A stretch of 64,000 bases of DNA from Bdellovibrionales bacterium (GCA_965204055.1 OZ241967.1:1318737-1382736); one strand, 5' to 3'. Shown: positions 6,587 to 55,499, counted from the stretch's first letter. The notes: generated from the sequence alone by a model not told the origin. Program-made: numbers and translations.

Positions 6587-8088
6587 ACTCCAAACTCCTT
6601 TAATCGCTTGCTCATCTCTGTGCGTGTTTTACTTAATTCTTTTTCCAAATCTTTAATCTCCCTTTGCGTCTTATGAATATCTACTACCTCCTCTTCCTCA
6701 AAAGTATCTACATAACGGGGAATGTTTAGGTTGTATTCATTTTCTCGAATTTCCTTTAAGGGTGAAAGATAAGCGTATTTGTCTATATTTTTTCTTTTTT
6801 TAGAAGCATTTAAAATTTTTTCAATATCTTGCTCCCGAAGTTTATTTTGATTTTTACCTGTTAAAAAATCCCGGCTGGCATCAATAAATAACACATCTTT
6901 TTTCTTTTTGTTTTTATGAAAAATCAAAAGAGCGGCCGGAATACCTGTTCCAAAAAAAAGCCCCGAAGGAAGGCCAATTACTATGTGTATTATGTTTTCT
7001 TCTATCATTTTTTCCCTGATGCGTCCTTCTGCTCCTCCGCGAAAAAGCACTCCGTGAGGAACAACCACACCGGCTTTTCCATCCGGTTTTACGCTTTCAA
7101 CAGCATGGGATATAAAAGCCCAGTCCCCTTTTGCATCAGGAGGCATGCCTCGATGAAAACGATTATAAGAATCATTTTGCGCGCTTTCATAACCCCATTT
7201 TTTTTTGCTAAAAGGGGGATTAGCTATCACCTTATTAAACTGCATTATGGATTTTTTTTCCAAAAATTGAGGAGACTGAATAGTGTCTCCCCATTCAATA
7301 TAAGATTGTGTTATCCCATGTAAAAACATATTCATTTTAGCTAAAGCCCAAGTTCCTCCGTTTATCTCTTGCCCGTATAGGGCAAAATTGGCACTGTTGA
7401 TTTCCTGTCTGGCTTTAATCAAAAGAGAGCCTGTTCCGCAAGCCGGATCGTAAATTTTATCTCCCTCTTTTGGTTCAATCAGTTTGGCTAATAACTTTGA
7501 TACTTCCGCAGGAGTAAAAAACTCTCCACCCTTCTTTCCCGCTTTTTCTGCAAAGTTTTGAATCAAATACAAATAGGAAGCACCAATAATATCTGACTGG
7601 CCTAAAAAATGTTTGAGATCGATATCTTTAAAATCGTTAATTAAATGTCTTAAAAGGGCATTTTTAGCTTTTGGCTTTCCCAGTAGAGCTTCTGAATTAA
7701 AATCCACATTTCTAAACACATTGTGCAGTTTTAATTGGTTAAGATCTTCCACTTCGTGAAAAACCTTGTTAATAATTTCTCCAATGTTGTCTTTGTTTCT
7801 GTGAGTAAAGATATAATTAAAGGAGCATTTATCATTTAATACAAAGGGTTCTCGTTTTAATCTTCTGTGGATTTTCTCTTTGTTCCCTTTGTAAGTCTTT
7901 GTGTATTCTTTTATCTTACTTTCATAAATATCAGAAATATACTTAAGAAATAAAAACGCCAGAATATAATCTTTATATTGGGAAGCATCAATCGTATGCC
8001 TAAAGGTGTCGCATGCCTTCCATAACTTTGCGTTTAACTCGTTAATAGAGGAATTAGATTTTTCGGTTGTTTTCTTATTAGGTTTCAT
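6583..8088 (-). CDS. hsdM: type I restriction-modification DNA methyltransferase subunit HsdM (N6-adenine)
   Basis: 501 aa. HsdM N-terminal domain (LWKACDTFR, YKDYILAFLFLKYISD), AdoMet motif DPACGTGSLL and catalytic NPPF (VIANPPFSKKKW). Confidence 0.95.
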   Translation of the reverse strand: MKPNKKTTEKSNSSINELNAKLWKACDTFRHTIDASQYKDYILAFLFLKYISDIYESKIKEYTKTYKGNKEKIHRRLKREPFVLNDKCSFNYIFTHRNKDNIGEIINKVFHEVEDLNQLKLHNVFRNVDFNSEALLGKPKAKNALLRHLINDFKDIDLKHFLGQSDIIGASYLYLIQNFAEKAGKKGGEFFTPAEVSKLLAKLIEPKEGDKIYDPACGTGSLLIKARQEINSANFALYGQEINGGTWALAKMNMFLHGITQSYIEWGDTIQSPQFLEKKSIMQFNKVIANPPFSKKKWGYESAQNDSYNRFHRGMPPDAKGDWAFISHAVESVKPDGKAGVVVPHGVLFRGGAEGRIREKMIEENIIHIVIGLPSGLFFGTGIPAALLIFHKNKKKKDVLFIDASRDFLTGKNQNKLREQDIEKILNASKKRKNIDKYAYLSPLKEIRENEYNLNIPRYVDTFEEEEVVDIHKTQREIKDLEKELSKTRTEMSKRLKEFGV

Positions 8089-8163
8089 TGTTAGTTTCCT
8101 TTTTTATTAGGTTTCATTGTTAGTTTCCTTTTTTATTAGGTTTCATTGTTAGTTTCCTTTTTT
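8077..8163. repeat. three perfect 29-bp tandem repeats carrying the hsdM RBS and start codon
   Basis: The unit attaggtttcattgttagtttcctttttt occurs at 8077-8105, 8106-8134 and 8135-8163. Counted by hand, no mismatches. Confidence 0.95.
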
Positions 8164-8932
8164 ATAAAAGTTTCTTCAATACTGAGTTTATTAAAATATG
8201 TTTTTTTTCGTCTACTGTTTCTTGTAAAAGTTTTTCCCGTGCTCTTAATTTTAATAAACACACAATTTTTTTTTGAATACTCATAGAGGGCAGAGGAATT
8301 TTAAAATTCATTAGATCGATTCTGGAAATAAAAGGTAGAGCAGAACCTGTAAGATGCTTTTGGACATAGCCCCTTATAGTAAAGCTTTGATTTAAAGCCC
8401 AACACAGGTAATCTGAATCAATATAATTAACTTTAGGGCGCAAAATATAAAAATGTGCCATTGGTAATGTGTTGTTAATTGGCCCTGTGTATCGAAACGC
8501 GCCAGGATTTAGTTTAGAAAGATATAGGACATCATTTTTTTGAACAAGATATTTGCTTATAAATTTGCTTTTTCGCTCAGGAATAAACATTTGTTCTAAA
8601 CCATCCAGTTTTATATGATATAATATGTCGCGACAGGCAGATTTTGCCTGTATAAGGTTATAACTTTTATATTTTTCTTTCGGGTTTATAAGGTGTAGGG
8701 CTTTGCCTGTTTCTTCTGAGGAAAAGTTAGAATAGGGTACGCTTACTTCTGATAATTTGTGGAACTTTGTTTTTAATTTCTGAGGTGGTTCTGCTGGGTC
8801 ATTAAGATTTTTATCTGTAAAAGCAAAAGGAAGGTGAGCTTTTATCTTCTGTGCAAATCCTCTAACCTGAAAGCCAGTTTGAATAGCAATAAGGTTCGAT
8901 AATATGGCTTCTTTAGATTTAAAACGAGACAT
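8162..8932 (-). CDS. half-size HsdS-like specificity protein (single TRD)
   Basis: 256 aa. The C-terminal part (ALPFISRIDLMNFKIPLPSMSIQKKIVCLLKLRAREKLLQ) matches the TRD-plus-conserved-helix pattern of HsdS. It lies directly upstream of hsdM on the same strand. Confidence 0.7.
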   Translation of the reverse strand: MSRFKSKEAILSNLIAIQTGFQVRGFAQKIKAHLPFAFTDKNLNDPAEPPQKLKTKFHKLSEVSVPYSNFSSEETGKALHLINPKEKYKSYNLIQAKSACRDILYHIKLDGLEQMFIPERKSKFISKYLVQKNDVLYLSKLNPGAFRYTGPINNTLPMAHFYILRPKVNYIDSDYLCWALNQSFTIRGYVQKHLTGSALPFISRIDLMNFKIPLPSMSIQKKIVCLLKLRAREKLLQETVDEKKHILINSVLKKLL

Positions 8933-9331
8933 TTATGCCCTCCTTAATCTCTTTGAGCTTAATTTGCACCTCCAAACAACTCGGGATTTTATTATTTATC
9001 ATTTATGCCTTCCTTCTGAGCTATTAATATAGATGTTTTAGATTTAAAGCGAGGCATTTATGCCCTCCTTCAGAGCTATTTTAAAAAAAAACTGTATTTT
9101 TTATTTATTCAAAAATATAAAATTAAGTATGTCAAGAAAAAAATTGCATAAATTAAAAATTCAATAAAAAATATGTAAAAAGTGGTTTTAAGTGGTTTTT
9201 GATGCTAAGCATAAAATTTTTCTTGAATTTTAATAAGTCTTGTGCGATAAATTCATCATACCCCCAGTTACGGCCTTGAGCCGGCTGGCCCCGGGAGCCT
9301 GAGCGACCGGTTTTTTTTTACCTTAGTTTAT

Positions 9332-9376
9332 ATGAAAAAAGTTATAGCTTTTATAGATGGGTTCAACCTTTATCCC
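9332..9376 (+). pseudogene. NYN-domain (LabA-like) gene stub, cut off by an IS end
   Basis: MKKVIAFIDGFNLY is a typical NYN-domain N-terminus. Homology stops where the IS1634-type end begins. Confidence 0.45.
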
Positions 9377-10058
9377 GACTTCCGCTAAACCGCAGTGCAA
9401 TAAATGAGTGATTTCCGACACTTACAAATTTCTGGTGCCACACATTTTTAAGATTTAGTTCAAGGAGTGGAGATAAATTTAGACACTCTTTTAAGTCCTA
9501 AGGCCTCGTATATGGATCTTATTTCTTTTGTGCTTTTAGAGGGCATGCGATAAAGATTTTTGTTTGCGTCCTCTATAAGGCTATATTGATCTCTTTTTAA
9601 AATCTCTCTCATCTGCCTTATGCTGAAGTTTAATCCTCTTTGTTCCATCCGATACTTCATAGTATAGGAAAGAGAGTAAGCTAAGAAGCATATAGCTATA
9701 TGGGCCTCTATTCTTTTCCTCTTCCAATGGTAAATGGGTCTCATCTTAAGGTTGTGTTTGCACACACGAAAAGCCTCTTCTATCTTCCAAAGTCTCCTGT
9801 ATCGGGTCAGTATCTCTTGAGGGGTTTGCTCTGTTCTTATGTTGGTTATTACTCCATGCAACCCATCCCACTTACTATCTTCTTTTATCTTTTGTTCGTT
9901 TAATGTAGCTTTTGTCTTTTGAACTGTGACATACTTTTTTGTTCCATAATTAGAGATAAGGCTTTTTATAGGAATTTGGTTTTTCTTTACTTTTTTCATC
10001 AGTCTTTCAATGAGTCTTAGTCTATCGGACTTGTTCTTCTTGGCTCTCTTCTTAGAGT
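9374..10058 (-). mobile_element. IS1634/IS4-family IS remnant (3' part only) with a transposase C-terminal fragment (ORF 9460..10074)
   Basis: The ORF fragment contains WDGLHGVITN, RYRRLWKIEEAFRVCKHNLKMRPIYHWKRKRIEAHIAICFLAY, typical of IS1634-type DDE transposases. The 5' part is missing, replaced at 10059 by an IS5-type element. The terminal ~85 bp (9374-9459) recur at 56123-56252. Confidence 0.7.
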
Positions 10059-10734
10059 AGTCGGCCCTGAACAAATGCTATTTTGTTAAAAAGCAGGTTG
10101 ATTTTTTATAAAATTATAATTTTGAATCTGTTTTTTCAACCAGCAAAAAAAGAACAAAAAGAAAGACCGCATGATCTTTCTCATATTAAACGCACTTGCT
10201 ACTAAAATAGGATTGATCTTATCTCCTTCTATCCCATGCAAATAGTTTACCCCCATACGATGCTCCTGTTTAATATGACCTATCACCGGCTCAATCGCCG
10301 TTCTCCTTTTTAAAGCTCTCTTCAACTTAGGAGATAATCGCCTCATCCCTGATATAAACACACTCTTTCCTAACAGCCTCATCCGATAAATCAAATACAT
10401 ACTTCAGGTAAATTAAACCCACAACTAATCGCACAGGAAGAGCAGGACGCCCCCTGTCTGAAGGAAAAAAAGTCTTAAACTTCCTCTCAAATTTTGACCA
10501 ATCTATACAATCTGCTAATTGAACAAGACCCATTTTCATATTTAAAAAATCTACTAAACGGGGCCGACCTAATTCCAATTGCTCACAATCTCTTTCAGAC
10601 TTCTTAGGCTTCATTTTTACCTCCAAACTTGCAAGGTTTTTAAACCTCTTTATATTTTCCTTGCAAATATTTTCCTTGCAAATTATAAAAAAATCAAGTG
10701 ATAATAATGCGTTAACATTTATTCAGGGCCGACT
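10059..10734 (-). mobile_element. IS5-family element, internal-deletion derivative (676 bp) of the intact copy at 48628-50103
   Basis: Both ends are near-identical to the full copy (agtcggccctgaacaaat... / ...attcagggccgact). The two ORF pieces (10327..10626 N-terminal, 10086..10400 C-terminal) match the first ~90 and last ~95 aa of the 442-aa transposase. About 800 bp are missing. Confidence 0.85.
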
Positions 10735-11811: not shown

Positions 11812-12693
11812 ATGAAATTTTCAGGAATCCATATTATATTGATAAGTTTGCTTGCTTTTTATATTCCTATTTCTCATGCAGACAAAAATGATCTTGCAAA
11901 CAAGCACTATCAACAAGGCTTAAATTATTTAAACCAGCAAAAACATGAATTGGCTGTCCAAAGTTTTACCCAAGCTATTAATCTGAATCCCACTTTGGCA
12001 ATGGCCTTCCATAGTCGTGGACAAGCTTATGCTCAGATGGAACAGTATGAAAAAGCTATTGAAGATTACACAACAGCAGGAAAGTGGAATGTTCATCTTA
12101 CAGATTTTGATAACCTGCTTAAAACAGCCCGTGCTGGTGTCACAAATAAGCAGGGAATTGAGCATTTAGAGATAGGAAGATTACAACAAGCGGAACACCA
12201 CTTTGCTATGGCACTGAATTTTGATCCAAACTTCGCCAGGTCTTATAATAATTTGGGGCTTATTGCATTGGAAAGAGGACAACTTGCTCAAGAACGTCCT
12301 TCAGCTTCTCCTACTCCTTCTACAACTTATTTTTTATCAGCTATAAATCTTTTTAACAGGGCCATCTTATTGGACACCACACTGCCTGCTTTTTACAACA
12401 ATAGAGGAATTGCTTACAGTGAGTTGAAGGATTGGAACAAAGCTTTAAAGAATTATGATAAAGCTATTCAGATGGATCTATTTTATTTTTCAGCTTATGC
12501 CAATCGAGCAAATGTCCATTCTGAACAAGGCCACCACGAAAAAGCCATTCAGGATCTAAACACAGCACTTAAACTGTCAAAAAAGCATGCGGGTAAAAAA
12601 AAAGATTCCTATTATAAAGGTCACTCTATGGTCGCCATTTATAACACCGGGGCCGGGCTTATGAACGCTCTGGACAATTACAATCCGCCATAG
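11812..12693 (+). CDS. TPR-repeat protein, frameshifted near its 3' end (reading continues in another frame to about 12947)
   Basis: Signal peptide plus repeated TPR consensus (A..Y..G.AY......A..DY..A). See the finding on the frameshift at the G-run near 12656. Confidence 0.75.
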   Translation: MKFSGIHIILISLLAFYIPISHADKNDLANKHYQQGLNYLNQQKHELAVQSFTQAINLNPTLAMAFHSRGQAYAQMEQYEKAIEDYTTAGKWNVHLTDFDNLLKTARAGVTNKQGIEHLEIGRLQQAEHHFAMALNFDPNFARSYNNLGLIALERGQLAQERPSASPTPSTTYFLSAINLFNRAILLDTTLPAFYNNRGIAYSELKDWNKALKNYDKAIQMDLFYFSAYANRANVHSEQGHHEKAIQDLNTALKLSKKHAGKKKDSYYKGHSMVAIYNTGAGLMNALDNYNPP

Positions 12694-13076
12694 CAGATTA
12701 TCATTCAGCTCTTAACGACCCTTATTTTGCATCTCTTCCTCCTGCTTCTTCTTCCTTAAGGGCGAAAATTATAGATGGCCTAAGAGCATTTTTTTATCAT
12801 CCGAGATGGGAAAACGAGTTTACCACAAGAAAGATAGATCCGGATCCTTTAAGACATAAAATACAAATTATAATTCAACGCAATTTAAGAAGAGCGCAAA
12901 CTCAAAAAGCAAGGAATCAACTTAACCCATGTAGAACCCTTTTTTAAATCCATTTCAAGTCAAGTCGTTAAATAAAATCAATATAATAGTCTATTTTTAA
13001 CTTGAATGGCCTTTTTTCAGGATCAATTTTTCAGGATCAATTAAATATTCCACAAGAAAATTCCGTAAAATATATT

Positions 13077-13211
13077 ATGAAACAAATATTATTTTTCTTG
13101 TTTTCTCTATCTGTTATTGAAATGGCAAACGCCAATCCTGTAACAGAAAAACAAAGCAAGTCTTTAGTCTTACAACAGGTTGAACAATGTTTAAGTTTTA
13201 TAAAGCCTTAA
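13077..13211 (+). CDS. 44-aa signal-peptide stub (truncated paralog of the 17822 gene) overlapping the start of paralog A
   Basis: MKQILFFLFSLSVIEMANANPVTEKQSKSLVLQ is nearly identical to the N-terminus of ORF 17822..18511, then diverges and stops. Confidence 0.4.
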   Translation: MKQILFFLFSLSVIEMANANPVTEKQSKSLVLQQVEQCLSFIKP

Positions 13212-15166
13212 CTTTTTTTTTGCGCAGAATAATTTTAATACCCCCATTTTATGCAATAGCTAAAAATTTAGCTAAAGTATGTGCTTTTTTGGGAGGAATA
13301 ATTTTAATATCCCCTTTTTATGCAATAGCTCAACAGTCAGATGAAGATCAGATGTCATTTATTTATGAGTTTAACATGTATTTCGATCACAAGGCTATAT
13401 CAAGTCAAAAAATCCGTTTATCATTAAAAAACAATGAAATAGACCTATCTCCTTTTATTGAAATGATTAACAAGTTAAGAGAATCTGATTATGCAAACGA
13501 TCTAAGATATATGGAAGTTGAGATCAGGGAGTTAAATTATAATGAAGATTTCATAAAGTTTTGTGAAAAAAGTTTATCCGAAAATTGTATGGAAAAAGCC
13601 AAAAATAGTTTGGAAAATGCTTTTTTAAAGATAGTTCAGGAAAAAGAGAATCAAATTCTTTATCCTGAAGATTATAGAGATATAGCAATTTATGGGCTAT
13701 CTCAAGAATCAAATAATTATATGATCCAAGATGCCAATGAAATTTTAAATTCTGAATGCACCGATAACTGGAATGAAAGGAAATTATCCAATATCATACT
13801 CACCCTCCACCCCAATCGCTGGGCTGAGCTAAAAGATAAACTAAAATATAAAGATAAAAATTTTTTGAATCAAGTTTTACAAAAAACTTATGATAAATTA
13901 AAAAAAGCAACATTTCCCGAACAGTGTCTCGATCCGGACAACCAAACCCATAGAGTTTGCAAAAGAGTAACAAAAGAGCTATCTATCAAAAAACAAAGAT
14001 TTAGATATCTAACAGAATTAGTCTATGGTGAGGATATATTACAAACTACTGAGGCTGAAGCCCCTTGTGTGGATTGTTTAGAAGGTTCTTTACCTGAAGA
14101 GCTAAGTGATTTAAACCAACTTTTTTCTCGTTTAAAGGAACATAGTGTATGCTCTGGCCCGGCCCCTGGAGAAGAAAAACAAGTTACCAACAATGGAGAC
14201 AGTTACACAGTGCGGAGAGAATCAGATGGATCTTTTTCGATTCCTTTAAACCTTGCATTTTCAGCAGACGAAGACTATGATGGGGAAGTTCCAAAGGACC
14301 AAGTGCCCAATCATTATAAAAACAAAGTGCAGGAATGTTTAAAAAAAGCCAATTCCAAAATGTTAGGCCCTAATGGGGAAAAACTGAACATAGTTATTGA
14401 ATCTCCCTCTAAAGAAAGTGCTTGCGGAAAAGAAAAACCTAAGACTATAAAGATTGGTCCCAGAAATTACAGATCGTATGTGGTTAAATATGAATCCAAT
14501 ATAGACTGCCCTACCATTACTCATGAGGTCTTGCACCTCTTAGGGCTTTGTGATGAGTATAAGGAAACAGTTACAGGATTCCAAGTGTCGGCGGATACAA
14601 GAGAAGTAAAAACAGCAAATATATTCGAAAAACTCGATAACGAAAATGATAAATTTGTTCTTGCTTATGACTGTCGGGTAACAGCTGAAAACAGTATTAT
14701 GTCTGACCAATATGAAAGATGGGATAATGTGTTTGAAGAAGGAGAATTTAGTACGTCTCCAAGAAAAAAAACAGAATCATCTCTTTTAAACAAAGCGCAA
14801 TTTAATGCTGTTCTCTATGGGGACTGCCCCTCTAAAAACGAACTTTTTAATGAGTGTGCAGATTTGGCTTATAAAACTTCAGTGATGGAAGGTAATGAAA
14901 ACTGTTTAAAACAAAAAAGAAAATGTATGGAAAATAATGTAATGGGATACAACAAAGCCGAGGAATTATCAAGAATCAGAGAGGAAATAAAATCTACAGA
15001 AAATATGAAGAGGGAATTATTATCATATCGTCAAAAAACAATAGAGAAAGAAACAAAGTTGCCGACAGAGCTTTCTTCTTGGTATGATAATCAAATCCAA
15101 GAAGCCGATTCCTGGCTTAAAGAACTAAGAGAAGAGTTAGAAATGGTATCGGCTTGGCCGGATTGA
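13187..15166 (+). CDS. secreted HExxH zincin-like protein, paralog A
   Basis: 659 aa. N-terminal hydrophobic signal. ITHEVLHLLGLCDEY (HExxH followed by DEY, reminiscent of M64-type metallopeptidase motifs). Many Cys. C-terminal coiled coil. Confidence 0.8.
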   Translation: MFKFYKALTFFLRRIILIPPFYAIAKNLAKVCAFLGGIILISPFYAIAQQSDEDQMSFIYEFNMYFDHKAISSQKIRLSLKNNEIDLSPFIEMINKLRESDYANDLRYMEVEIRELNYNEDFIKFCEKSLSENCMEKAKNSLENAFLKIVQEKENQILYPEDYRDIAIYGLSQESNNYMIQDANEILNSECTDNWNERKLSNIILTLHPNRWAELKDKLKYKDKNFLNQVLQKTYDKLKKATFPEQCLDPDNQTHRVCKRVTKELSIKKQRFRYLTELVYGEDILQTTEAEAPCVDCLEGSLPEELSDLNQLFSRLKEHSVCSGPAPGEEKQVTNNGDSYTVRRESDGSFSIPLNLAFSADEDYDGEVPKDQVPNHYKNKVQECLKKANSKMLGPNGEKLNIVIESPSKESACGKEKPKTIKIGPRNYRSYVVKYESNIDCPTITHEVLHLLGLCDEYKETVTGFQVSADTREVKTANIFEKLDNENDKFVLAYDCRVTAENSIMSDQYERWDNVFEEGEFSTSPRKKTESSLLNKAQFNAVLYGDCPSKNELFNECADLAYKTSVMEGNENCLKQKRKCMENNVMGYNKAEELSRIREEIKSTENMKRELLSYRQKTIEKETKLPTELSSWYDNQIQEADSWLKELREELEMVSAWPD

Positions 15167-15261
15167 GATTTTATCAATACTGCATCGCTCAGCCTTACTT
15201 AGTCAAGCCTGAAAAAACTGTTAACATGTTGTTATCACTTGATTTTTTTAAGGTATGCAGG

Positions 15262-15365
15262 CAGTGGCCTTAAATATGCTGAAGAACAAATTTAAGCTGT
15301 CTGTTATTTCTGAAATCACCGGTCTTTCTGCAAAAGAGATCAAAAAGCTTGCAAACAACTCCTAA
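15262..15365 (+). pseudogene. Rpn/YhgA-family C-terminal fragment
   Basis: Translates to AVALNMLKNKFKLSVISEITGLSAKEIKKLANNS*. This matches the C-terminus of the intact gene 26649..27704. Confidence 0.6.
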
Positions 15366-15455
15366 CTTTCGGCATTGTCTGAATAACCCTGAAAATCAGG
15401 ATCAATTTTTCAGGATCAATTAAATATTCTACAAGAAAATTCCGTAAAATATATT

Positions 15456-15590
15456 ATGAAACGAATATTATTTTTCTTGTTTTCTCTATCTGTTATTGAA
15501 ATGGCAACTGCTAATCCTGTAACAGAAAAACAAAGCAAGCCTTTAGTCTTACAAAAGATTGAACAATGTTTAAGTTTTATAAAGCCTTAA
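15456..15590 (+). CDS. 44-aa signal-peptide stub, second copy
   Basis: MKRILFFLFSLSVIEMATANPVTEKQSKPLVLQ; same arrangement as 13077..13211. Confidence 0.4.
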   Translation: MKRILFFLFSLSVIEMATANPVTEKQSKPLVLQKIEQCLSFIKP

Positions 15591-17464
15591 CTTTTTTTTT
15601 GAGCAGAATAATTTTAGTCTTGCCGTTTTTTGCAACAGCTCAAAATCCGGCTGAAAATCAGCAACTCATGCATTTTATGGAAGTATTCAATAATAGGACT
15701 ATATCAGGGCAAAGCATCAGTTTGGAATTAAAAAACAATGAGATAGATCTATCTCATTTTATTGAAATGATTAATAGTTTAAAAGAATCTGATTACGCAG
15801 AAGATCTATTATATATGGAAATTACGATTGATAGATCAATTCGTAAAGAAATCGACCTCCTTTGTGAAAAAAGTTTATCTAAAGATAACTGTATTAAAAA
15901 AGCTAAAGATAGTTTGGAAAATGCTTTTTTAAAGATAGTTAAGGAAAAAGAGAATCAGATTCTCTATCCTGAAGATTATAGCAAAATTTATGGGCGATCT
16001 AAAGCAGAGAATAATCGTATGATAGAACGTGCAAATACTCGTTTGGATTTTGAATGCCCGTCTGACACTGATGAAAGAGTGCTATCCAGTATCATACGCA
16101 CGCTTCACCCTAATCGTTGGGATGAACTACAAGATAAGTTAAAATATACTGATAAAAACTTTTTGAAAAAACTTGTACAAAGAGTTTATGCTGACTTAGA
16201 ACAACAGGAATATCCTGAACAGTGTCTCGATCTAGCTAACAAAAACCATAGAGTTTGCAAAAGAGTAACAAAAGAGCTATCTATCAAAAAACAAAGATTT
16301 AGATATCTAACAGAATTAGTCTATGGTGAGGATATATTACAAACTACTGAGGCTGAAGCCCCTTGTGTGGATTGTTTAGATGGCTCTTTACCTAAAGAAT
16401 TAAGCACTTTAGACCAGCTCTTTTCTCGTTTAAAGGAACATAGCCTTTGTTCTGACCCTGCCCCTGGAGAAGAAAAACAAGTTACCAACAATGGAGACAG
16501 TTACACAGTTCGGAGAGAACCGGATGGATCTTTTTCGATTCCCTTAAACCTTGCATTTTCAGCAGATGAGGACTATGATGGGGAGGTCCCAAGGGACCAA
16601 GTGCCCAATCATTATAAAAACAAAGTGCAGGAATGTTTAAAAAAGGCCAATTCCAAAATGTTAGGCCCTAATGGGGAAAAACTGAACATAGTTATTGAAT
16701 CTCCCTCTAAAGAAAGTGCTTGCGGAAAAGAAAAACCTAAGACTATAAAGATTGGTCCCAGAAATTACAGATCGTATGTGGTTAAATATGAATCCAATAT
16801 AGACTGCCCTACCATTACTCATGAGGTCTTGCACCTCTTAGGGCTTTGTGATGAGTATAAGGAAACAGTTACAGGATTCCAAGTGTCGGCGGATACAAGA
16901 GAAGTAAAAACAGCAAATATATTCGAAAAACTCGATAACGAAAATGATAAATTTGTTCTTGCTTATGACTGTCGGGTAACAGCTGAAAACAGTATTATGT
17001 CTGACCAATATGAAAGATGGGATAATGTGTTTGAAGAAGGAGAATTTAGTACGTCTCCAAGAAAAAAAACAGAATCATCTCTTTTAAACAAAGCGCAATT
17101 TAATGCTGTTCTCTATGGGGACTGCCCCTCTAAAAACGAACTTTTTAATGAGTGTGCAGATTTGGCTTATAAAACTTCAGTGATGGAAGGTAATGAAAAC
17201 TGTTTAAAACAAAAAAGAAAATGTATGGAAAATAATGTAATGGGATACAACAAAGCCGAGGAATTATCAAGAATCAGAGAGGAAATAAAATCTAAAGAAA
17301 ATATGAAGAGGGAATTATTATCAGATCGTCAAAAAACAATAGAGAAAGAAACAAAGTTGCCGACAGAGCTTTCTTCTTGGTATGATAATCAAATCCAAGA
17401 AGCCGATTCCTGGCTTAAAGAACTAAGAGAAGAGTTAGAAATAGTGTCGGCTTGGCCGGATTGA
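15566..17464 (+). CDS. secreted HExxH zincin-like protein, paralog B
   Basis: 632 aa. The C-terminal ~400 aa are almost identical to paralog A, including HEVLHLLGLCDEY. The N-terminal ~230 aa are clearly diverged. Confidence 0.8.
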   Translation: MFKFYKALTFFLSRIILVLPFFATAQNPAENQQLMHFMEVFNNRTISGQSISLELKNNEIDLSHFIEMINSLKESDYAEDLLYMEITIDRSIRKEIDLLCEKSLSKDNCIKKAKDSLENAFLKIVKEKENQILYPEDYSKIYGRSKAENNRMIERANTRLDFECPSDTDERVLSSIIRTLHPNRWDELQDKLKYTDKNFLKKLVQRVYADLEQQEYPEQCLDLANKNHRVCKRVTKELSIKKQRFRYLTELVYGEDILQTTEAEAPCVDCLDGSLPKELSTLDQLFSRLKEHSLCSDPAPGEEKQVTNNGDSYTVRREPDGSFSIPLNLAFSADEDYDGEVPRDQVPNHYKNKVQECLKKANSKMLGPNGEKLNIVIESPSKESACGKEKPKTIKIGPRNYRSYVVKYESNIDCPTITHEVLHLLGLCDEYKETVTGFQVSADTREVKTANIFEKLDNENDKFVLAYDCRVTAENSIMSDQYERWDNVFEEGEFSTSPRKKTESSLLNKAQFNAVLYGDCPSKNELFNECADLAYKTSVMEGNENCLKQKRKCMENNVMGYNKAEELSRIREEIKSKENMKRELLSDRQKTIEKETKLPTELSSWYDNQIQEADSWLKELREELEIVSAWPD

Positions 17465-17821
17465 TTCTTCCCCTGACTAATTAGTCGGTCGTGAAAAAGC
17501 AGTTAACGCATTATTATCACTTGATTTTTTTATAATTTGCTTGGAAAATATTTACAAGGTTTTACAACAAAACCTTTGTTTTCTTGCAAAATTTGTCAGT
17601 GAAAAAGAACTTAACTTTAGTCTGTGCTTTAAAAATATACTTCGGATAGAAAGGAAAAGTTAAAAACCACATTGTTAAAATCATCAGACAATCTCAAAGA
17701 GATTGACAAAAAGCTTGCAAACAACTCCTAACTTTCGGCATTATCTGAATAACCCTGAAAATCAGGATCAATTTTTCAGGATCAATTAAATATTCCACAA
17801 GAAAATTCCGTAAAATATATT

Positions 17822-18511
17822 ATGAAACGAATATTATTTTTCTTATTTTCTCTATCTGTTATTGAAATAGCAACCGCTAATCCTGTAACAGAAAAACAAA
17901 GCAAGCCCTTAGTCTTACAAAGGGAGGTCTCCCATCCCCGAAACATCGATCAAATATCTTTTATTTTTAGAGAAAACAAAGTGGAAATGGTTACCAATAT
18001 ATCCTTTTGGCAGAAGGGTAAAAAACCCCGCTTAGGCCGATTTGAGTCTTCTATGACTCCTTTACTTCAGTCTTTAAAAAAAAGACTTACGCGGTATCGT
18101 GGTCGGTTACAAAAAACAGTGCCTCTTTCCTCTCTGATAAAAGACCGACGGATTCAGCCTTCGCACACTCCGCATGCTCCTATCTTGCGTCTTAATACAA
18201 GAGAGATTAAAGAGGGTGGCCCTTTTTTTAAGGAGCTGGAAGATATTATTCAACAAATAGGAAATACAAATTGGAAATGTGTGGAATGTGCGGAATATCA
18301 AAGACATAAAAAAGGGATTGTTCGTGTTGTTCGAAAACGAACGGGTATAAGCAATAAGCAGAGGGATAACCCATCTAAAAAGCCTTCAAAAAAACTCTCT
18401 CGCTATCTTGTCAAAAGAAAAATATTATCTAAAAAGAGCTTAAATTGTATCCGCAAAACAAAATCTCGATGGGAATGTGTAGATAGGCAATTTGGTATTT
18501 TTGAAATATAA
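17822..18511 (+). CDS. secreted basic protein (229 aa), unknown function
   Basis: Signal peptide shared with the two stubs. Lys/Arg-rich C-terminal half with Cys pairs (CVECAEY, CIRK, WECVD). Confidence 0.6.
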   Translation: MKRILFFLFSLSVIEIATANPVTEKQSKPLVLQREVSHPRNIDQISFIFRENKVEMVTNISFWQKGKKPRLGRFESSMTPLLQSLKKRLTRYRGRLQKTVPLSSLIKDRRIQPSHTPHAPILRLNTREIKEGGPFFKELEDIIQQIGNTNWKCVECAEYQRHKKGIVRVVRKRTGISNKQRDNPSKKPSKKLSRYLVKRKILSKKSLNCIRKTKSRWECVDRQFGIFEI

Positions 18512-18661
18512 ACCAACATGGTCATCTATAGGAGTCAGTTCTGATTAAATGTTTTTTATCCTCTAAACTGAATAGCCAAATTGTTGGCAAACTGCAAAGC
18601 CAACAACTTGGCTTTGCAATCCCTTGAAGGCGAGAATCTCTTAACTTTTTAGGTGTGAATA

Positions 18662-19778
18662 ATGTTTAAGTTTTATAAAGCCTTAACTTTTTTTTTGCGC
18701 AGAATAATTTTAGTCTTGCCGTTTTTTGCAACAGCTCAAAATCCAGTTGAAGCTCAACAACTTATTCGTTTTTCAAGAGGTTTCGCATACAAGGCTATAT
18801 CAGGACAAAGCATCAGTTTGGAATTACAAAACAATGAAGTAGATCTATCTCCTTTTGTTGGAATGATTAATAGGTTAAAAGAAACTGATTACGCAGAAGA
18901 TCTATTACATATGGAAAAAACGATTGATAGATCAATTCGTAAAGCAATCACCCCCCTTTGTGAACAAAGTTTATCTAAAGATAACTGTATTAAAACAGCT
19001 AAAAATAGTTTGGAAAATGCTTTTGATAAGGTGGTTAAGGAAAAAGAGAATCAGATTCTCTATCCTGAAAGTTTTTACAGCGTTTATGAACGATCTCCAA
19101 CAGAGATGAATAAAATACTCCAAAGAAACAATGAAATTTTGGATCGTGAATGCCAGAAGGGCCGTGATCAAAGAGACCTAACCATTGGCATATTCCTACT
19201 TCATCCCAACCATTGGCCTGAGCTACAAGATAAATTAAAATATAAAGATAAAGATTTTTTGAACGAAGTTTTACACACAGCTTATAATAGGTTTAAAGAA
19301 TCTTATGAATACCCTGAACAGTGTCTTGATCCGGCCAACAAGAACCATAGAGTTTGCAAAAAAATGCAAAAAAATTTGGCTATCATAGTGCAAAGATTTA
19401 CTTATCTAACAGAGTTAGTTTATGGCCGGGATATATTAAAAACCACCGAAGCTGAAGCCCCTTGTGTAGATTGTGTAGAAGAGGTTTTAACTCAAGAAGT
19501 AAGCACTTTAGACCAGCTTTTTTCTATTTTAGAAGAGCATGGCTTTTGTTCTAACCCCGCCCCTGGAGAAGAAAAACAAAGCAGAGGAATTATCAAGAAT
19601 TAGAGAGACAATAAAATCTATCGAATATTTGCAGGAATATTCTCTCGAGCAGGAAAAAACTATGCAAGTAAAAAATCCCCACGCAGACGCCCAGCATGAA
19701 GATGACTTCCACTGGTACGATTCTGCTCTTAAAGAACTAAGAGAAGAGTTAGAAATAGTGTCGGCTTGGCCGGATTGA
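18662..19778 (+). pseudogene. HExxH-family paralog C with the metalloprotease domain deleted and a frameshift
   Basis: ORF 18662..19603 aligns with the N-terminal ~300 aa of A/B up to APGEEKQ. ORF 19539..19778, in another frame, aligns with the C-terminal coiled coil (AEELSRIRE ... LKELREELEIVSAWPD). The HExxH region is absent. Confidence 0.75.
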
Positions 19779-19795: not shown

Positions 19796-19973
19796 TAGTA
19801 GCCCGTGAAAAAGGTTGTTATTTTGATTGGATTCCCACTTGAAAAAGGCTGAAAGCCCAAAGGACTTTCATTTTAGGTTCTGGATACCCGCTTTCAAGGG
19901 TCTGCAAAGCCAAGTACTTGGCTTTGCAGTTTAGAGATGAATGAGGTTTATCACAGACGACTAATTAAAGTGT
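19796..19973. mobile_element. MITE copy D
   Basis: Terminal inverted repeats agtagcccgtgaaaaag / tatcacagacgact. Internal palindrome ctgcaaagccaagtacttggctttgcag. Flanked by AATT on both sides. Confidence 0.65.
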
Positions 19974-20352: not shown

Positions 20353-20372
20353 CCCCCCCCCCCCCCCCCCCC
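20353..20372. repeat. homopolymeric C20 tract
   Basis: Counted directly: 20 consecutive C in an AT-rich intergenic region about 100 bp upstream of ORF 20470. Confidence 0.97.
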
Positions 20373-20469: not shown

Positions 20470-20823
20470 GTGTTGTTTCTGACTCGCTTAGTAATTTTAG
20501 TTCTGCTTTGTGTACCAGTTTTTTTATTTGAACTTCAAGTAATATCAGTCCTCATTCCCTCAGCAGAGGGAGACACAACCTGTAACCTCCCAAGCTATAC
20601 AGGTTGTGAGGAAGATATTTTTTACTTTTATACTCCACAAGTGGCCAGAGAATGCACTAAAGATAGATGGCAAGAAGGTAATACGCATTTTCATCCACCC
20701 AACTACGGAACGGGGTGGTGTGAGGTTGATCTTAGAGCAAAAAAAATTCCAAGAACTTTTTTAACCTTTTTAAACGAGGTTTTTCCCGATGCAGATATAA
20801 ACGAAATAAGCGGTGCGCGTTAA
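20470..20823 (+). CDS. small secreted/membrane-anchored Cys-containing protein
   Basis: GTG start, hydrophobic N-terminus LVILVLLCVPVFLF. No recognised domain. Confidence 0.5.
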   Translation: MLFLTRLVILVLLCVPVFLFELQVISVLIPSAEGDTTCNLPSYTGCEEDIFYFYTPQVARECTKDRWQEGNTHFHPPNYGTGWCEVDLRAKKIPRTFLTFLNEVFPDADINEISGAR

Positions 20824-20955: not shown

Positions 20956-22011
20956 ATGAACACAATAAATAAAATTATGAAAAAAACAAGCTTTTTCAAA
21001 GGATTACCAGGAAATATAAGTCTTTTGGCTTTTGTTCTGATAAGTGGTTCTTTTACAGCTTATGGAGACTCTTCTGCCATCCCTTGTGATTATATATCAC
21101 ATCGTAATGCCAACCTTCAGAATTGGAGCTCTCAAACAGGATTTGTATACTGCAATAAAAATGGTAAAATAGTTAAGGGTCATGTGTTAAACAGTGCAAG
21201 AGTGAACTATGTATCTGTGTGGGTCACCACTGCCAAAGGAGAGGCTACACAACACAAAGTGCCTCTTCGTTCTGGCATCCAGGTAAAAGATATATCCGAA
21301 TACCAATATAACATTGCTGATCATCCTGAAGTGGCAAGACAATTACGAAGGATGGAAGTGGCAAAAGTGGGTGACACCATTGCTTTGGCTCCCAATGGAA
21401 TAGGGCTTTCAAATAGCACTAAAATCTTGGAAAATGGGGCTGATTTTTTTGTCCAACCCAATGTAGAATCTAATGAGTCTTTGCAATTAAAAAACTCTTC
21501 CCAATTCAGCTCTTTAGCAGAATACACTAAAAACAACGAAGGATACCACAGGCCAACGATAAATTGTAAATATGAAACAGAACCCACTGTTGTTAAAGGA
21601 CGTTGTGCTCGATCAGGCCGTTATAATATCTCCACTTGTGTGGGAAAAGTGAGATGTGCTATTAGGAGAGATGGCAAACGCACCCCTTATGAGGAGAGCT
21701 TCGCTCGTATTCGCTCCGGTGATTCAGTCTCTATAGAAATGGGAGGGGGTTTGGGATTAGATGATTGGCAGGAAATCCAAATAAAAAATGTAACTTGTGA
21801 TCTTGCCAGAGTTCGCTATAATGATGATGATCCTTACACTTGTCCAACAGCAACCGAATGTATGTTGGATGAAGATCCCTATACAAAAGCCGTTTCATCG
21901 AGACAAGTGCGGTATCAACAGACACCTAACATGTACAATCAAGATGAATATCAACACTACCCAAAAAATGTCGAAGAAAGACGTAGCGGGTCTGCTGGAT
22001 CTACACAGTAA
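20956..22011 (+). CDS. secreted protein (351 aa), unknown function
   Basis: Signal peptide (ISLLAFVLISGSFTAYG), multiple Cys, RBS aaggag. Preceded by two mini-ORFs. Confidence 0.65.
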   Translation: MNTINKIMKKTSFFKGLPGNISLLAFVLISGSFTAYGDSSAIPCDYISHRNANLQNWSSQTGFVYCNKNGKIVKGHVLNSARVNYVSVWVTTAKGEATQHKVPLRSGIQVKDISEYQYNIADHPEVARQLRRMEVAKVGDTIALAPNGIGLSNSTKILENGADFFVQPNVESNESLQLKNSSQFSSLAEYTKNNEGYHRPTINCKYETEPTVVKGRCARSGRYNISTCVGKVRCAIRRDGKRTPYEESFARIRSGDSVSIEMGGGLGLDDWQEIQIKNVTCDLARVRYNDDDPYTCPTATECMLDEDPYTKAVSSRQVRYQQTPNMYNQDEYQHYPKNVEERRSGSAGSTQ

Positions 22012-22028: not shown

Positions 22029-22388
22029 ATGAAATTAAATACATATAAAAAATTTGTTCAGACAGGTTGGAGTTTTGCACTTGTTTTGGCAATGTTGTTT
22101 TCACTCACTTCTCATGGTGCTATAGAAAATGCTGTTATAGAGGGTATAGTGGTGAGTTACGACAAGAAAACAGTTACCCTTTTACAAAGCCAGGGCCAAA
22201 GAGTTAAAGTCCCCAGAAAGTCCATCCCTAAGAATATTAAATTAAAAACAGGTATTAAAGTGGAGGCTGTTTTAGATAGTGAAAAGTTAATGAAACAAAT
22301 TAGAGAAATCAAAGCAGAAGAGCAGAAGACTAAAAAAACTAAAAATACCCTATCGCAAGAAGAACCAGCCCGCCGGGGAAAGAAATAG
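22029..22388 (+). CDS. secreted protein (119 aa), unknown function
   Basis: Signal peptide, Lys-rich tail, RBS ggagg 6 nt upstream. Same strand and tightly spaced with 20956..22011. Confidence 0.6.
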   Translation: MKLNTYKKFVQTGWSFALVLAMLFSLTSHGAIENAVIEGIVVSYDKKTVTLLQSQGQRVKVPRKSIPKNIKLKTGIKVEAVLDSEKLMKQIREIKAEEQKTKKTKNTLSQEEPARRGKK

Positions 22389-22901: not shown

Positions 22902-24572
22902 TCAACAGACTTTGAGTTTGAGTATTCTGTCTATGCGGAACATTCTTTCGTCCTGCATATTTAAGCAAAAAGCTCGCATGCCTTGATATTTTGTGCCCTT
23001 GTAAGTTTGCCAACCACATTCCAAAGGTTCCACCACAAAGAAGGATTTTAGGTCATTGGTTTTGAGATACTGGATCTTCAGTTGTTTTTTGCTTTCGATA
23101 GCCTTTTGAATAAGAATCATTTTATCTTGGACAGACATTTCCCTTTCTGCTTGGCGATATTGCCATTGGGTTAAAAATTTCATAATTCGATAATCAACAC
23201 GGATATGTTGTTTTTGGATAGGCACTTTCAACACAAGACCTTTAAAAGAAACACATCGGCTGAGGGCCACATAGGCTTGACCGCTGGCAAACATACCCCG
23301 GCTCATATCTATAATCACTCGCTCAAAAGTTTTGCCTTGACTTTTATGAATAGTGATGGCCCAGGCCAAACGAAAAGGGAATTGAGTAAAAGTGCCCACT
23401 AAATCTGAAGTAATAGCTTTCTTTTTTTCGGAGAAGGAAAATTGATAAATTTCCCATGTATGAGGAGACACAGAAACGATTTTATTTTCTGGATAAAGCT
23501 GAACTCGCACAAAATATTCTTTTCTGTTCTCTATATTTGCGCGATCCTCTATGTCCAAGTGGTTTTCTATGTCCACGCTATTCTCTATGTCCAAGTGGTT
23601 TTCTATGTCCACGCTATTCTCTGTGTCCACGCTATTCTCTGTGTCCACGCGAACCTCTATACCTACAATACGACCCACACTGCCATTCACCCATCGCTTT
23701 TTTGAATCATTGTTGAGGAGCATAACTTGCGCGCCTTTTTTAAATTTTAAAAGCTCATGGGTAGGAAAATACTCCTTTCCCACTTGGCCAGATATAATTG
23801 CTGAAGACTGAAAAACTTTGCCTTTTAGTTTTTTTAAACGTTCTTCGTTAATTTTATCAGCGGTTTTGTTGATAGCATTTAAACTTATATAAAACTGATT
23901 TTTTTCTGGCTTAAAAGAAGGAAGAAAACGGCGGTTTAAACAATCAATGTCATACTGCTGAACAGAGTTGTTTCTCACTCGATTTAACAGTTCTATAAAT
24001 TTTTGATCTTTTTGCCTGTAAACTTTTTCTAACTCTATGATTTCCATTTTAAACTTGTGCAGAGCTTTTGCACTAAAAAAAAAGGGAGATTCATACTGAG
24101 AGGAAAATACTTCTTTTTCCTTTGCTGTTACCACAGGAGGTAGCTGATAGAGATCACCGATAAAAATCATCTGCACTCCTCCAAAGGGCTTTGTTTTTTG
24201 AGGTCCATATCGACGTAAAAAAATATCTACACAATCTAAAAGATCGGCCCGTACCATAGATATTTCATCAATAATCAAGGTTTTTAAATTTTTATAAATA
24301 GCAGGATCTTTAGGCTTTTTTTTGCTTTTTTTTATTTTCTCTACATGAACATCTATATAAAATTTAAAAAAATTGTGTATGGTTTGGCCCTTTATATTTA
24401 ATGCGGCTACTCCTGTAGGAGCCAGTATCACAGGCTTTTTATCTGTAATAGAGCAAAAATATTCCAACAAAGTGGATTTACCTGTCCCGGCCTTTCCGGT
24501 GATAAAGAGGTTTTTTGTGGCTCTCATACCTTGAAGAGCCTGATTAAACTGAGGATTAATGTCTAACTTCAT
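22902..24572 (-). CDS. PIF1/RecD-family helicase with a WYL-like C-terminal domain and an internal 6-aa repeat insert
   Basis: Walker A GKAGTGKST, LIIDEISMV, FIGDLYQLPPV, ITIHKSQGKTF and ALSRC. C-terminal ~90 aa ending MFRIDRILKLKV resemble a WYL domain. The start is taken at MKLDINPQ (ATG 24572) because the upstream part of the ORF is made of 60-bp direct repeats. Confidence 0.85.
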   Translation of the reverse strand: MKLDINPQFNQALQGMRATKNLFITGKAGTGKSTLLEYFCSITDKKPVILAPTGVAALNIKGQTIHNFFKFYIDVHVEKIKKSKKKPKDPAIYKNLKTLIIDEISMVRADLLDCVDIFLRRYGPQKTKPFGGVQMIFIGDLYQLPPVVTAKEKEVFSSQYESPFFFSAKALHKFKMEIIELEKVYRQKDQKFIELLNRVRNNSVQQYDIDCLNRRFLPSFKPEKNQFYISLNAINKTADKINEERLKKLKGKVFQSSAIISGQVGKEYFPTHELLKFKKGAQVMLLNNDSKKRWVNGSVGRIVGIEVRVDTENSVDTENSVDIENHLDIENSVDIENHLDIEDRANIENRKEYFVRVQLYPENKIVSVSPHTWEIYQFSFSEKKKAITSDLVGTFTQFPFRLAWAITIHKSQGKTFERVIIDMSRGMFASGQAYVALSRCVSFKGLVLKVPIQKQHIRVDYRIMKFLTQWQYRQAEREMSVQDKMILIQKAIESKKQLKIQYLKTNDLKSFFVVEPLECGWQTYKGTKYQGMRAFCLNMQDERMFRIDRILKLKVC

Positions 24573-24624
24573 TTTCCAACTTTTATAGACTCCCACGGCT
24601 AAAATCGTGGTGCTCTGTCTTTGA

Positions 24625-24773
24625 CCGCATAGTGATATGCCAGTCAAATGACCAGAGCAATAACCTTTAGACTTTGCGGAAACTCCGCATAGTGATATGC
24701 CAGTCAAATGACCAAAAGTGACCCCCCCGACGATTCAAGCCACTGGACCCGTAATATGACAGTCAAATGACCA
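24625..24773. repeat. three direct repeats of about 30 bp at 60-bp spacing upstream of the helicase gene
   Basis: ccgcatagtgatatgccagtcaaatgacca occurs at 24625-24654 and 24685-24714 (identical). A degenerate third copy lies at 24748-24773. Confidence 0.8.
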
Positions 24774-24911: not shown

Positions 24912-25840
24912 TTATTGGCTTGTTCGAAAAGCAAAACGACACATGGTGTTTATAGTCCGCGATAATAAAGTGGGCCGGTTGTGACTATTTTTATGCAATA
25001 CAGCCTTCAGACTTTGTCTCTCTTTTTCATTTTCAGCCTCCTTTATGAGAATAGAAAACTCCTGTTCCAAGAGTTGTTTTAGCTTAGATTTCTGCTTTTG
25101 AGATTCAGCTTGACTTATGAGAGTATCAAATTCCTGCATGATTTCAGAAGAGGACTTTCCCTTCCGTAGCAAAGGCATAAGCTTTTCAAGCAGTCTATTA
25201 TAAGCCTGCTGGTTCCCTCGCCCATATATATCTAAATTGTATATATCTAATACCCCCATATAGGGTGTGTTTCCATCACGATTTCTCATACTAAGATCAG
25301 CACCATACTGAACAAGAACTTTAATAACATCTATTATTCTTCTAAAAGGCATAGTGCCACGGGAATACCGCCAATTTAATTCTTGCACCATTAGGTGTAA
25401 AGAAGACTCCTTCTGATATCCACTTACTATGGGAAACATTTTTAGATCTACATCTGCTCCAGCCTTAAGAAGTGCTGACACAGCCTTTGGGCTTTCAGCG
25501 GTATAGATAGCAAAATCCAAAGGAAACCTTCCGTTTATAGGTTGATTCAGATCCACTTTAGATTTCCTCACTATGGCTTCAATTTCTGAAGGGTTGTCCA
25601 GAATAGCTTGCATAAGAGGATGAAGTCTTGTCCACGGTTCATGCCCTGCTCTTTTTGCATGAAAAAACGCTGATTTTTCAGAAGGAACTGCGCCACCGAT
25701 AATATGACCACCTATTTCCAATCGAGGGGTTCTATAGCGACCCGCGAAGCCATAAGGAATTACATATTCGGCTGTATCGGCTGTACTTGAATGTACTTGA
25801 GGAACTAATAGAAAAAAAATCCTAAAAGTAATATCTTCAT
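24912..25840 (-). pseudogene. secreted ankyrin-repeat protein, signal peptide separated from the body by a frameshift in an A8/T8 tract
   Basis: Ankyrin consensus (LLKAGADVDL, SSLHLMV, LVQYGADLSMRNRDGNTPY). ATG at 25840 with RBS aggagg encodes MKILLLGFFF then stops. One extra T would fuse it in frame to the 24912..25721 ORF. Confidence 0.7.
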
Positions 25841-51993: not shown

Positions 51994-52083
51994 AATAACC
52001 CGCTTTTTTTATTTCTTCAGCTATCCTTATGGTTGATCATAATTCAATATATTTCCAGAAAAGCAAAATAGTCAATAAAAAAA

Positions 52084-52199: not shown

Positions 52200-52210
52200 A
52201 ATTCTTTTTT

Positions 52211-52483: not shown

Positions 52484-55499
<3,016 letters not shown>

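Follow-up and report, generated by a model that had tools for sequence, protein, structure and literature searches.

The genome of an uncultured relative of Bdellovibrio (a Bdellovibrionales bacterium, known from a metagenome assembly) contains, within the 64,000-nucleotide (nt) stretch analyzed here (the window), three tandem copies of a gene for a putative secreted zinc protease. Two of these copies, A and B, are intact; they differ extensively in their N-terminal parts (heads) and are almost the same in their C-terminal parts (tails). What is this protein, and how have two adjacent genes come to share one half so closely and not the other? The best explanation overall, and one that we consider probable, is that the gene product is a secreted zinc endopeptidase of the metzincin type, specific to this lineage, and that its two-gene operon has turned into a recombined tandem array.

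Organization of the protease array

Surveys of open reading frames (ORFs) and of repeats identify three tandem protease units, of which A and B are intact and C is a pseudogene. Gene A (13187–15166, + strand) encodes 659 amino acids (aa), with the motif HEVLHLLGLCDEY at 14522–14560 and the Met of the predicted Met-turn at 14699–14701. Gene B (15566–17464, + strand) encodes 632 aa, with the same motif at 16820–16858 and the Met at 16997–16999. These are followed by an intact 229-aa gene, here called the partner gene (17822–18511, + strand), and by copy C (18662–19778, + strand), which is broken into ORFs 18662–19603 and 19539–19778. An earlier reading of this DNA made without database searches (the sequence-only reading) had placed A, B and the 229-aa gene at the positions that the ORF survey returns. 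It had also described three cassettes with near-identical tails, a description that holds for A and B and fails for C, which lacks the catalytic domain and is frameshifted.

The encoded proteases have a common layout. A signal peptide is followed by a helical head (about 230 aa), a conserved linker that contains Cys, a Cys-rich catalytic domain (about 280 aa) and a C-terminal coiled-coil hairpin (about 70 aa). The head of A has no close counterpart in the databases, its nearest relative sharing only 62% aa identity. The signal-peptide region of gene A also contains a 69-nt tandem duplication (13216–13277 and 13285–13346, together 13216–13346, + strand; 82% identical), seen both in the repeat survey and in the protein alignment, which gives A two hydrophobic segments with AIA at the end of each.

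Genes A and B form a mosaic of diverged and identical segments

Alignment of A and B reveals several features. First, the heads share only about 75% DNA identity over the first 700–770 nt, with values of about 60–90% per 60-nt block and with insertions and deletions. Second, beyond the head the identity changes in blocks: positions 13963–14082 are 100% identical, 14083–14347 contain 27 differences (about 90% identical), and 14348–14996 are again 100% identical over 649 nt, such that only four differences are present in the 819 nt from 14348 to the stop codon. When the 195 A/B differences were shuffled 10,000 times, the longest identical run was 132 nt. Third, aa identity rises from 62% in the head to 92% in the middle and 99% in the catalytic domain, and is 96% in the coiled coil. 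Finally, synonymous divergence (dS) falls from 0.49 in the head to 0.048 in the tail, and because silent-site divergence differs tenfold between the two parts, recombination is needed beyond selection on the protein. The sequence-only reading had proposed variable heads on near-identical tails, and had named in advance a uniform identity profile as the contrary outcome; the per-site profile is mosaic, and an origin of the A/B mosaic by recombination or gene conversion is supported.

An explanation that dispenses with recombination is duplication of the whole gene followed by fast, selection-driven divergence of the head. The head does outpace the catalytic domain throughout the family, the ratio of nonsynonymous to synonymous divergence (dN/dS) is raised in the head (0.52 for A/B, 0.74 for A/C and 0.90 for B/C, compared with 0.13 in the tail), and A and B share the junction of a truncated upstream ORF (see below), which indicates a single origin of their leaders. 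We nonetheless regard this explanation as very improbable: the tenfold synonymous difference is not accounted for, dN/dS never exceeds 1, and, as described next, the head of B is almost identical to that of a gene in another strain and its tail is not, with the informative sites of B switching parent four times.

A sister strain reveals the parents of gene B

The history of the mosaic was examined with a sister strain as outgroup, L045 (ENA ERZ25068284, contig_46), so that the comparison is one of two genomes. L045 is syntenic with the window, with flank identities of 95–98% and a shared gene order of sulfatase-modifying-enzyme gene, TPR gene, stub, protease gene, 229-aa gene, C copy, two ORFs and PIF1-like helicase gene. 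It has two cassettes only, one composed of a stub and a protease gene (xB) and the other of the partner gene and a C copy (xC). The product of xB (homologue P0003) is 99% identical to that of B in the head, 78% in the catalytic domain and 61% in the coiled coil. The proposal of the sequence-only reading that recent gene conversion produced the pattern is borne out by this location of a B head on a different catalytic half, as well as by the contrast in dS.

Classification of B at the 363 sites that differ between A and xB resolves it into four runs, where about 182 are expected by chance. B is xB-type at 15602–16245 (161 sites), A-type at 16277–16355 (17 sites), xB-type again at 16381–16459 (17 sites) and A-type at 16481–17420 (about 168 sites), all on the + strand. 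From 17443 the remainder of B, together with the flank 3′ of it, is C-type and agrees with xC and with copy C of the window. Gene B is a three-parent mosaic, in which the head is B-type, the catalytic tracts are A-type and the 3′ end is C-type. As the tail shared by A and B differs from the B-type tail kept in L045, the most parsimonious reading is that B was overwritten by A, that is, conversion of B by A. The conversion probably started in the patch 16476–16662, where A-type and B-type sequences are already 95–98% alike.

The flanks tell a further part of the history. The 5′ and 3′ flanks of A equal those of xB, so that one pair of flanks (about 97% identical between strains) encloses a different head in each strain, A in the window and B in L045. 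Moreover, the heads of B and xB have only 3 differences in 680 nt, whereas about 20 would be expected had they diverged as much as the flanks (about 3%; Poisson P 2e-6); this hints at a recent exchange between strains, and variation in rate could be an alternative. A single unequal crossover between cassettes was considered as the origin of the array and rejected, since no one event yields the head and flank combinations of the two strains together. At least two events therefore separate the strains: either the window strain gained a cassette and had its interior replaced, or L045 underwent a conversion followed by a leader-to-leader deletion.

These same observations bear on the idea that the locus is a dedicated variation system, in which heads are swapped as specificity modules, and copy C and the stub-led copies act as a repertoire for donation and expression, in the manner of antigenic-variation loci. 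The different heads between the same flanks and the unexpectedly similar B and xB heads speak for such a system; there is a gene for an Rpn recombination-promoting nuclease near the array, with Rpn remnants inside it; and tandem protease copies recur in other genomes (L004, L010, L017, L019–L022, L034 and L036). The repeat and ORF surveys of the 10–23 kb region, however, identified no recombinase site, invertible segment, retroelement or reverse transcriptase, template repeat or set of promoterless donors; what they did identify was the leader repeats, the remnants of IS and Rpn, and a palindromic element of generic type. Furthermore, the conversion tract is the catalytic half and not the head, both live copies are complete genes with leaders, the operon is single-copy among housekeeping genes in three related genomes, and the strains compared are two. 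We therefore consider a dedicated system unlikely, and the suggestion of the sequence-only reading that a cassette system keeps a catalytic module and diversifies an N-terminal one is not upheld. For these data, homologous recombination of a generic kind between tandem paralogues suffices. The array is similar to other cases of concerted evolution by gene conversion in its patchy tracts within the conserved part, the escape of the diverged part and the presence of pseudogenes, and does not differ from them in any respect, the process being of the generic RecA type with nothing specialized.

Finally, near-identical tails could in principle be an artefact of assembly, with tandem repeats collapsed or chimeric. 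This is a metagenome assembly, an exact repeat of 649 nt in 2.3-kb tandem units is error-prone, and sequencing error could account for the nearby frameshifts (TPR gene and xC). Yet the independent assembly of L045 also has the leader and stub, the IS and Rpn remnants and the C copy, and neither the scattered A/B differences inside the converted tract nor the different 3′ flanks are expected from a collapse. We find an artefact hard to credit.

Leaders, stubs and mobile-element remnants at the unit junctions

Each protease gene of the array is associated with a similar leader. The segments 13017–13186, 15396–15565 and 17762–17925 belong to a single repeat family in the repeat survey. Leader 1 (13017–13186, + strand) contains a stub ORF at 13077–13211 and leader 2 (15396–15565, + strand) one at 15456–15590; leader 3 lies 5′ of the intact partner gene (17762–17821, + strand). 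The stubs correspond to the first 34 codons of the 229-aa gene, with 85% (13077) and 94% (15456) aa identity in a tblastn comparison. In each, this 34-codon segment is fused about 10 nt 5′ of the protease ATG, and the reading frame then continues out of frame across the protease start, producing a 44-codon stub ORF that overlaps the start of the protease gene. The fusion junction is the same in A and B. A scan of the three leaders for sigma-70 promoters was uninformative: in each, the one match was weak and overlapped the ATG of the stub.

Behind the two intact protease genes are remnants of mobile elements. An IS5 left end follows A (15200–15250, + strand, 51 nt) and another follows B (17482–17558, + strand, 77 nt); the former was found by motif search and aligned to the IS5 copies at 10686–10716 (− strand) and 50055–50085 (− strand). 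Both remnants are identical, in register, to the left end of the full IS5 copy and to that of a decayed copy (10086–10716), and as the transposase of the full copy (48655–50076, − strand) matches NF033578 at 1.6e-146, the remnants are assigned to IS5. C-terminal fragments of Rpn, a member of the PD-(D/E)XK transposase family, are also present: 38 codons after A (15252–15365, + strand), reading GMQAVALNMLKNKFKLSVISEITGLSAKEIKKLANNS and a stop codon, and the last 10 codons after B (17697–17732, + strand), reading EIDKKLANNS and a stop codon. Both match the C-terminus of the intact Rpn ORF at 26649–27704, and the fragment after A has 96.9% DNA identity to the 3′ end of an Rpn gene of L045 that is located upstream of the sulfatase-modifying-enzyme gene.

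The repeat survey, tblastn and these alignments thus confirm two claims of the sequence-only reading, namely that A and B are each preceded by a shared leader with a 44-codon stub of the partner gene, and that each is followed by IS5-end and Rpn C-terminal remnants. Its further proposal, that the duplication involved mobile elements, is not supported as a causal one. The remnants do sit at the unit junctions, which is circumstantial evidence only, and L045, with one cassette fewer, already has the same IS5 and Rpn remnants.

The partner gene and the ancestral operon

The 229-aa partner protein is basic and has a signal peptide. Its mature N-terminus is conserved (PLVLQxEVSHPRNxDQ), a further stretch is basic and variable, and four Cys residues are invariant (CxxC...Cx9C). 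It matches no Pfam or NCBIfam model at threshold, and a PDB sequence search gave no useful match. A homologue of the partner gene is located directly upstream of the protease gene in L001, L003, L004, L006, L008, L009, L010, L015, L046 and L047/L048; that of L001 is 72% identical and separated from the protease gene by a 2-nt gap, and in L002 one gene is inserted between the two. Most related genomes have a single operon. The pairs listed here are single-copy, those of L001, L046 and L047 included, and the neighbours that were checked (L001, L002 and L046–L048) are housekeeping genes. The partner family has 19 members, and all 11 of its longer contigs (22 kb or more) also have a protease homologue. 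This conservation in at least ten related genomes supports the view that the ancestral unit was an operon composed of the 229-aa gene and the protease gene, as the sequence-only reading had supposed.

Small secreted inhibitors are known to pair with secreted metzincins, examples being serralysin with Inh/AprI and snapalysin with sermetstatin (PDB 4HX3). The present locus is similar to these pairs in that a gene for a small secreted protein lies beside, and is conserved with, that of a secreted metzincin-type protease, and differs in that the partner has no sequence or structural similarity to known inhibitors. By analogy, the partner is possibly an inhibitor or a chaperone; a role as anchor or substrate is equally possible.

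Copy C

The third unit has retained the whole partner gene and has a decayed protease gene. In the window about 770 nt have been lost, and with them the catalytic domain: PGEEKQ is followed directly by NKAEELSRIR, the junction lying at a short AACAA repeat, and the head and middle (18662–19579) are joined out of frame to the coiled-coil tail (19575–19778). The tails of C and B are 53% identical in aa, with the exception of the last ~60 nt. In L045, xC has kept the catalytic domain with all of its motif residues, and has lost its reading frame at the codons for PGEEKQ. The damage to copy C lies in both strains at the A-rich sequence GGAGAAGAAAAACAA (encoding PGEEKQ), being a frameshift in L045 (13815–13960) and a deletion with a frameshift in the window (19560–19580), and this site may be a hotspot for slippage or deletion.

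Copy C is also flanked by a pair of palindromic elements with the core CTGCAAAGCCAAnnnCTTGGCTTTGCA, identified by inverted-repeat and pattern searches: one at 18589–18638 (no strand assigned) and its inverted partner at 19883–19932. The element is about 27–50 nt long and is present at seven sites in the window (5600, 18592, 19902, 20170, 22767, 57760 and 59260); it looks like a genomic repeat of the repetitive extragenic palindrome (REP) or miniature inverted-repeat transposable element (MITE) type.

A family of putative secreted proteases in Bdellovibrio relatives

The N-termini of both the protease and the partner, read by eye, have a positively charged start and a hydrophobic core followed by ATA|Q or ATA|N, and both proteins are predicted to be exported via the Sec pathway. 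A word-indexed search identified 116 homologues of the protease, and an exhaustive search 935 clusters at 50% identity. Among named source records these belong to metagenome genomes of Bdellovibrionota (Bdellovibrionales, Bacteriovoracaceae, Halobacteriovoraceae, Bacteriovoracia or Oligoflexia), or to a bin labelled only "Proteobacteria", and several genomes hold multiple family copies. Contig scans returned no homologues with a single protein as query; an alignment used as query gave matches. A whole-library profile search contained, among the matches listed, only strong family members and no bridge to a known family, and a literature search on metzincin families in Bdellovibrio relatives found nothing relevant. 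In one distant branch (P0102–P0115, proteins of about 800 aa from Bacteriovoracaceae), about 120 residues that include additional pairs of Cys are inserted after the zinc motif and before the Met-turn region.

The pattern of conservation points to an active site. In 61 sequences, extending down to about 21% identity, H419, E420, H423, Y431 and M478 (B numbering) are invariant along with ten Cys residues, and G426, D429 and E430 are at least 90% conserved. The sequence HEVLHLLGLCD fits the metzincin pattern HExxHxxG/NxxH/D both in this set and in a 30-sequence alignment of the domain, and M478 (in NSIMS), 49 residues past the third ligand, is judged by its position to be the Met of the Met-turn. 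The catalytic half is under strong purifying selection, as its dN/dS given above attests. We infer that the protein is a zinc endopeptidase, and propose that His419, His423 and Asp429 are the zinc ligands and Glu420 the catalytic base, with Tyr431 beside the metal and Met478 under it.

Structure prediction with AlphaFold gave a full-length model with a mean predicted local distance difference test (pLDDT) score of 86.4 and a predicted template modelling (pTM) score of 0.73, and a model of the domain with values of 90.9 and 0.88. The order of elements in the domain model is strands, a long helix, three strands, the HExxH helix, a beta-ribbon, the Met, a helix and three Cys-rich helices. The linker leading to the catalytic domain is a low-confidence loop and carries a conserved CxxC.

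Comparison with known metzincin families

The metzincins include roughly 17 structurally defined families, and their motif is defined as HExxHxxG/NxxH/D; an Asp as third ligand is rare, being found in snapalysins, thuringilysins and igalysins (PMC12237041). The sub-threshold Pfam matches of the family to proteases are all to metallopeptidases (Astacin, M64, Reprolysin_4, M6 and M7), and the other weak matches are scattered over unrelated families, each made by a single member of the family described here. Three known families deserve closer comparison.

The first is that of the astacins (MEROPS M12A, PF01400), which provide the best profile match. An hhalign comparison with an astacin profile, built from an alignment made in this analysis, gave a probability of 70.8% and an E value of 3.8e-5 over 104 columns, with HEVLH..DE in register with HELMH..HE and SIM478 with the astacin SIMHY. 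Astacin is also the strongest of the sub-threshold Pfam matches: a distant member scores 20.7 bits and the best members reach E values of 0.0013–0.0014, where the gathering score is 22.5 bits; the window proteins have no match to the model at E ≤0.1. The two are alike in the distance from third ligand to Met-turn (49 residues here, 45 in astacin) and in the Glu directly after the third ligand (D429-E430 here, H102-E103 in astacin). They differ in that the third ligand here is Asp rather than His, in that the GFxHExxRxDRD continuation is not present, in that the Met-turn reads SIMSD with no Tyr after it rather than SIMHY, and in domain architecture. Membership in M12A was rejected on the gathering score and on the missing third-ligand His, RxDRD and Met-turn Tyr.

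The second is that of the igalysins (M64, PF09471), represented by the IgAse of Thomasclavelia ramosa (PDB 3P1V and 4DF9). In the D-E-Y of IgAse, D550 is the zinc ligand, E551 is family-specific and Y552 is the Tyr close to the metal; the Met-turn comes after a long connecting segment that includes a beta-ribbon, and igalysins have an extra residue before the Gly (HExxHxxxGxxD) (PMC12237041). The family described here shares the D-E-Y triad and the long beta-ribbon segment, and has a weak match to M64 over domain residues 140–215 (E 0.085). It differs in its canonical HExxHxxGxxD and in having SIM in place of the CIM of IgAse, the Cys of which binds a structural zinc. Membership in M64 was rejected on the canonical spacing, which lacks the extra residue, and on a score of 12.4 bits against a gathering score of 26 bits; M64 structures are not among the Foldseek top 50 for the domain model. 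The sequence-only reading had guessed "M64-like", which on the strength of the shared triad and the sub-threshold match was close, and it had put no name to the family, in keeping with the absence of any library match at threshold.

The third is that of the snapalysins (M7, PF02031; 1C7K), which have the same HExxHxxGLxDxY motif with an Asp ligand and a Tyr two residues on. Unlike the proteins described here, they are minimal enzymes of 132 aa with only 10 residues from Asp to Met. An hhalign comparison with 1C7K aligned the 18-residue motif only (probability 46.7%). Membership in M7 was rejected because the similarity stops at the motif, with one of 30 members matching Pfam M7 at E 0.15. In our reading, based on these sequence features, the proteins would constitute a new family inside the metzincin clan and outside all of its defined families.

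Neighbouring genes and other features of the window

The TPR-repeat gene upstream of the array (11812–12990) encodes 293 aa as a result of a 1-nt frameshift near 12645, with the remaining frame recognizable after the stop; in L045 it is intact (8524–9759, 411 aa). Just downstream of the array, ORFs 20956–22011 (351 aa, without a Pfam or NCBIfam match) and 22029–22388 (119 aa) have N-terminal hydrophobic segments, and L045 has ORFs that match in size (350 aa and 119 aa) in a region of about 97% DNA identity. An intergenic run of 20 C residues (20353–20372), upstream of ORF 20470–20823, may be prone to slippage or may reflect a homopolymer error of long-read sequencing.

The window is crowded with mobile and defence genes. 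In addition to the full IS5 transposase and the intact Rpn gene already described, there are an HsdM/HsdS type I restriction-modification pair (6583–8932), IS1634 and IS5 fragments (9460–10716), the PIF1-like helicase with a WYL domain (22902–24707), an ankyrin-repeat protein (24912–25721), a 1711-aa ORF (27873–33008), an N4/N6 methylase (38251–39099), an IS3-type integrase (40724–41593) and a ParA-like ATPase (50180–51319). Genes for 23S and 5S ribosomal RNA (rRNA) are located at 52083–55498 (− strand) with no 16S rRNA gene in the window, and the rRNA operon appears to be split.

Discussion

Several points weigh against the explanation given at the outset. First, none of A, B and C matches a Pfam or NCBIfam model at threshold, and neither the single protein nor profiles of its full length and of the domain retrieved anything beyond coiled-coil noise from the sequences of the PDB. 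Second, Foldseek searches of the PDB returned no significant match for the domain model (the best zincins being MMP-16, with E 1.3 and TM 0.29, and ADAM10, with E 2.0) and only generic helical matches at E ~1 for the full-length model (14-3-3, PUF and APP-E2). Third, the hhalign probability obtained with the astacin profile is suggestive, not decisive. Fourth, the 2.3-kb tandem repeat is known from assembled sequence alone. Finally, the order of events is beyond the resolving power of two genomes, and the difference in cassette number may reflect a gain of the A cassette in the window strain or a loss in L045.

The first two of these points would also suit a protein that is not an active metzincin at all, being instead some other zinc protein, a dead scaffold or an adhesin, as would the fact that over half of the protein consists of noncatalytic regions, helical or coiled-coil. 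We consider this unlikely, however, as the residues that stay invariant at about 21–40% identity are precisely those assigned to zinc binding and catalysis, along with the Tyr beside the metal and the Met, the astacin profile aligns in register over 104 columns, and the catalytic half is evidently constrained.

We continue to favour a metzincin-type protease in a recombined operon array, for which the following history can be proposed. The usual form is a two-gene operon, with the gene for a small secreted, Cys-containing partner 5′ of the protease gene, and in the window strain this operon has become a tandem array. The two live protease genes have each kept only the promoter-proximal leader of the partner gene and the 44-codon stub, and the third unit has kept the whole partner gene, with a decayed protease gene. 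Ordinary homologous recombination then placed A sequence over about 1 kb of the catalytic half of B, and a C-type 3′ end on B, with the heads, too diverged for recombination, staying distinct. The stub may let the duplicated genes retain the promoter of the operon and its translational coupling, the one partner that survives may serve all copies, and the head may be a latency or targeting domain.

A bolder version, to which we give rather little credence, is that the head is a target-recognition or latency module swapped whole between cassettes as well as between co-occurring strains, that the partner is a new metzincin inhibitor or chaperone, and that together they form an undescribed modular secreted-protease system, based on a new family of metzincins, in a host-associated Bdellovibrio relative. 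If so, one optimized catalytic engine would be kept and its aim shuffled.

The gene shuffling described here is ordinary; the protease family is new. The array offers a clean, outgroup-rooted case of conversion homogenizing catalytic halves while heads differ, which is useful and unsurprising. The family itself, with its approximately 935 clusters, is possibly a further and sizeable member of the metzincins, with a hybrid active site that would combine canonical spacing, an Asp ligand, the D-E-Y of igalysins and an astacin-like Met-turn spacing. For annotation, this would provide a name and a testable activity for hundreds of "hypothetical proteins".

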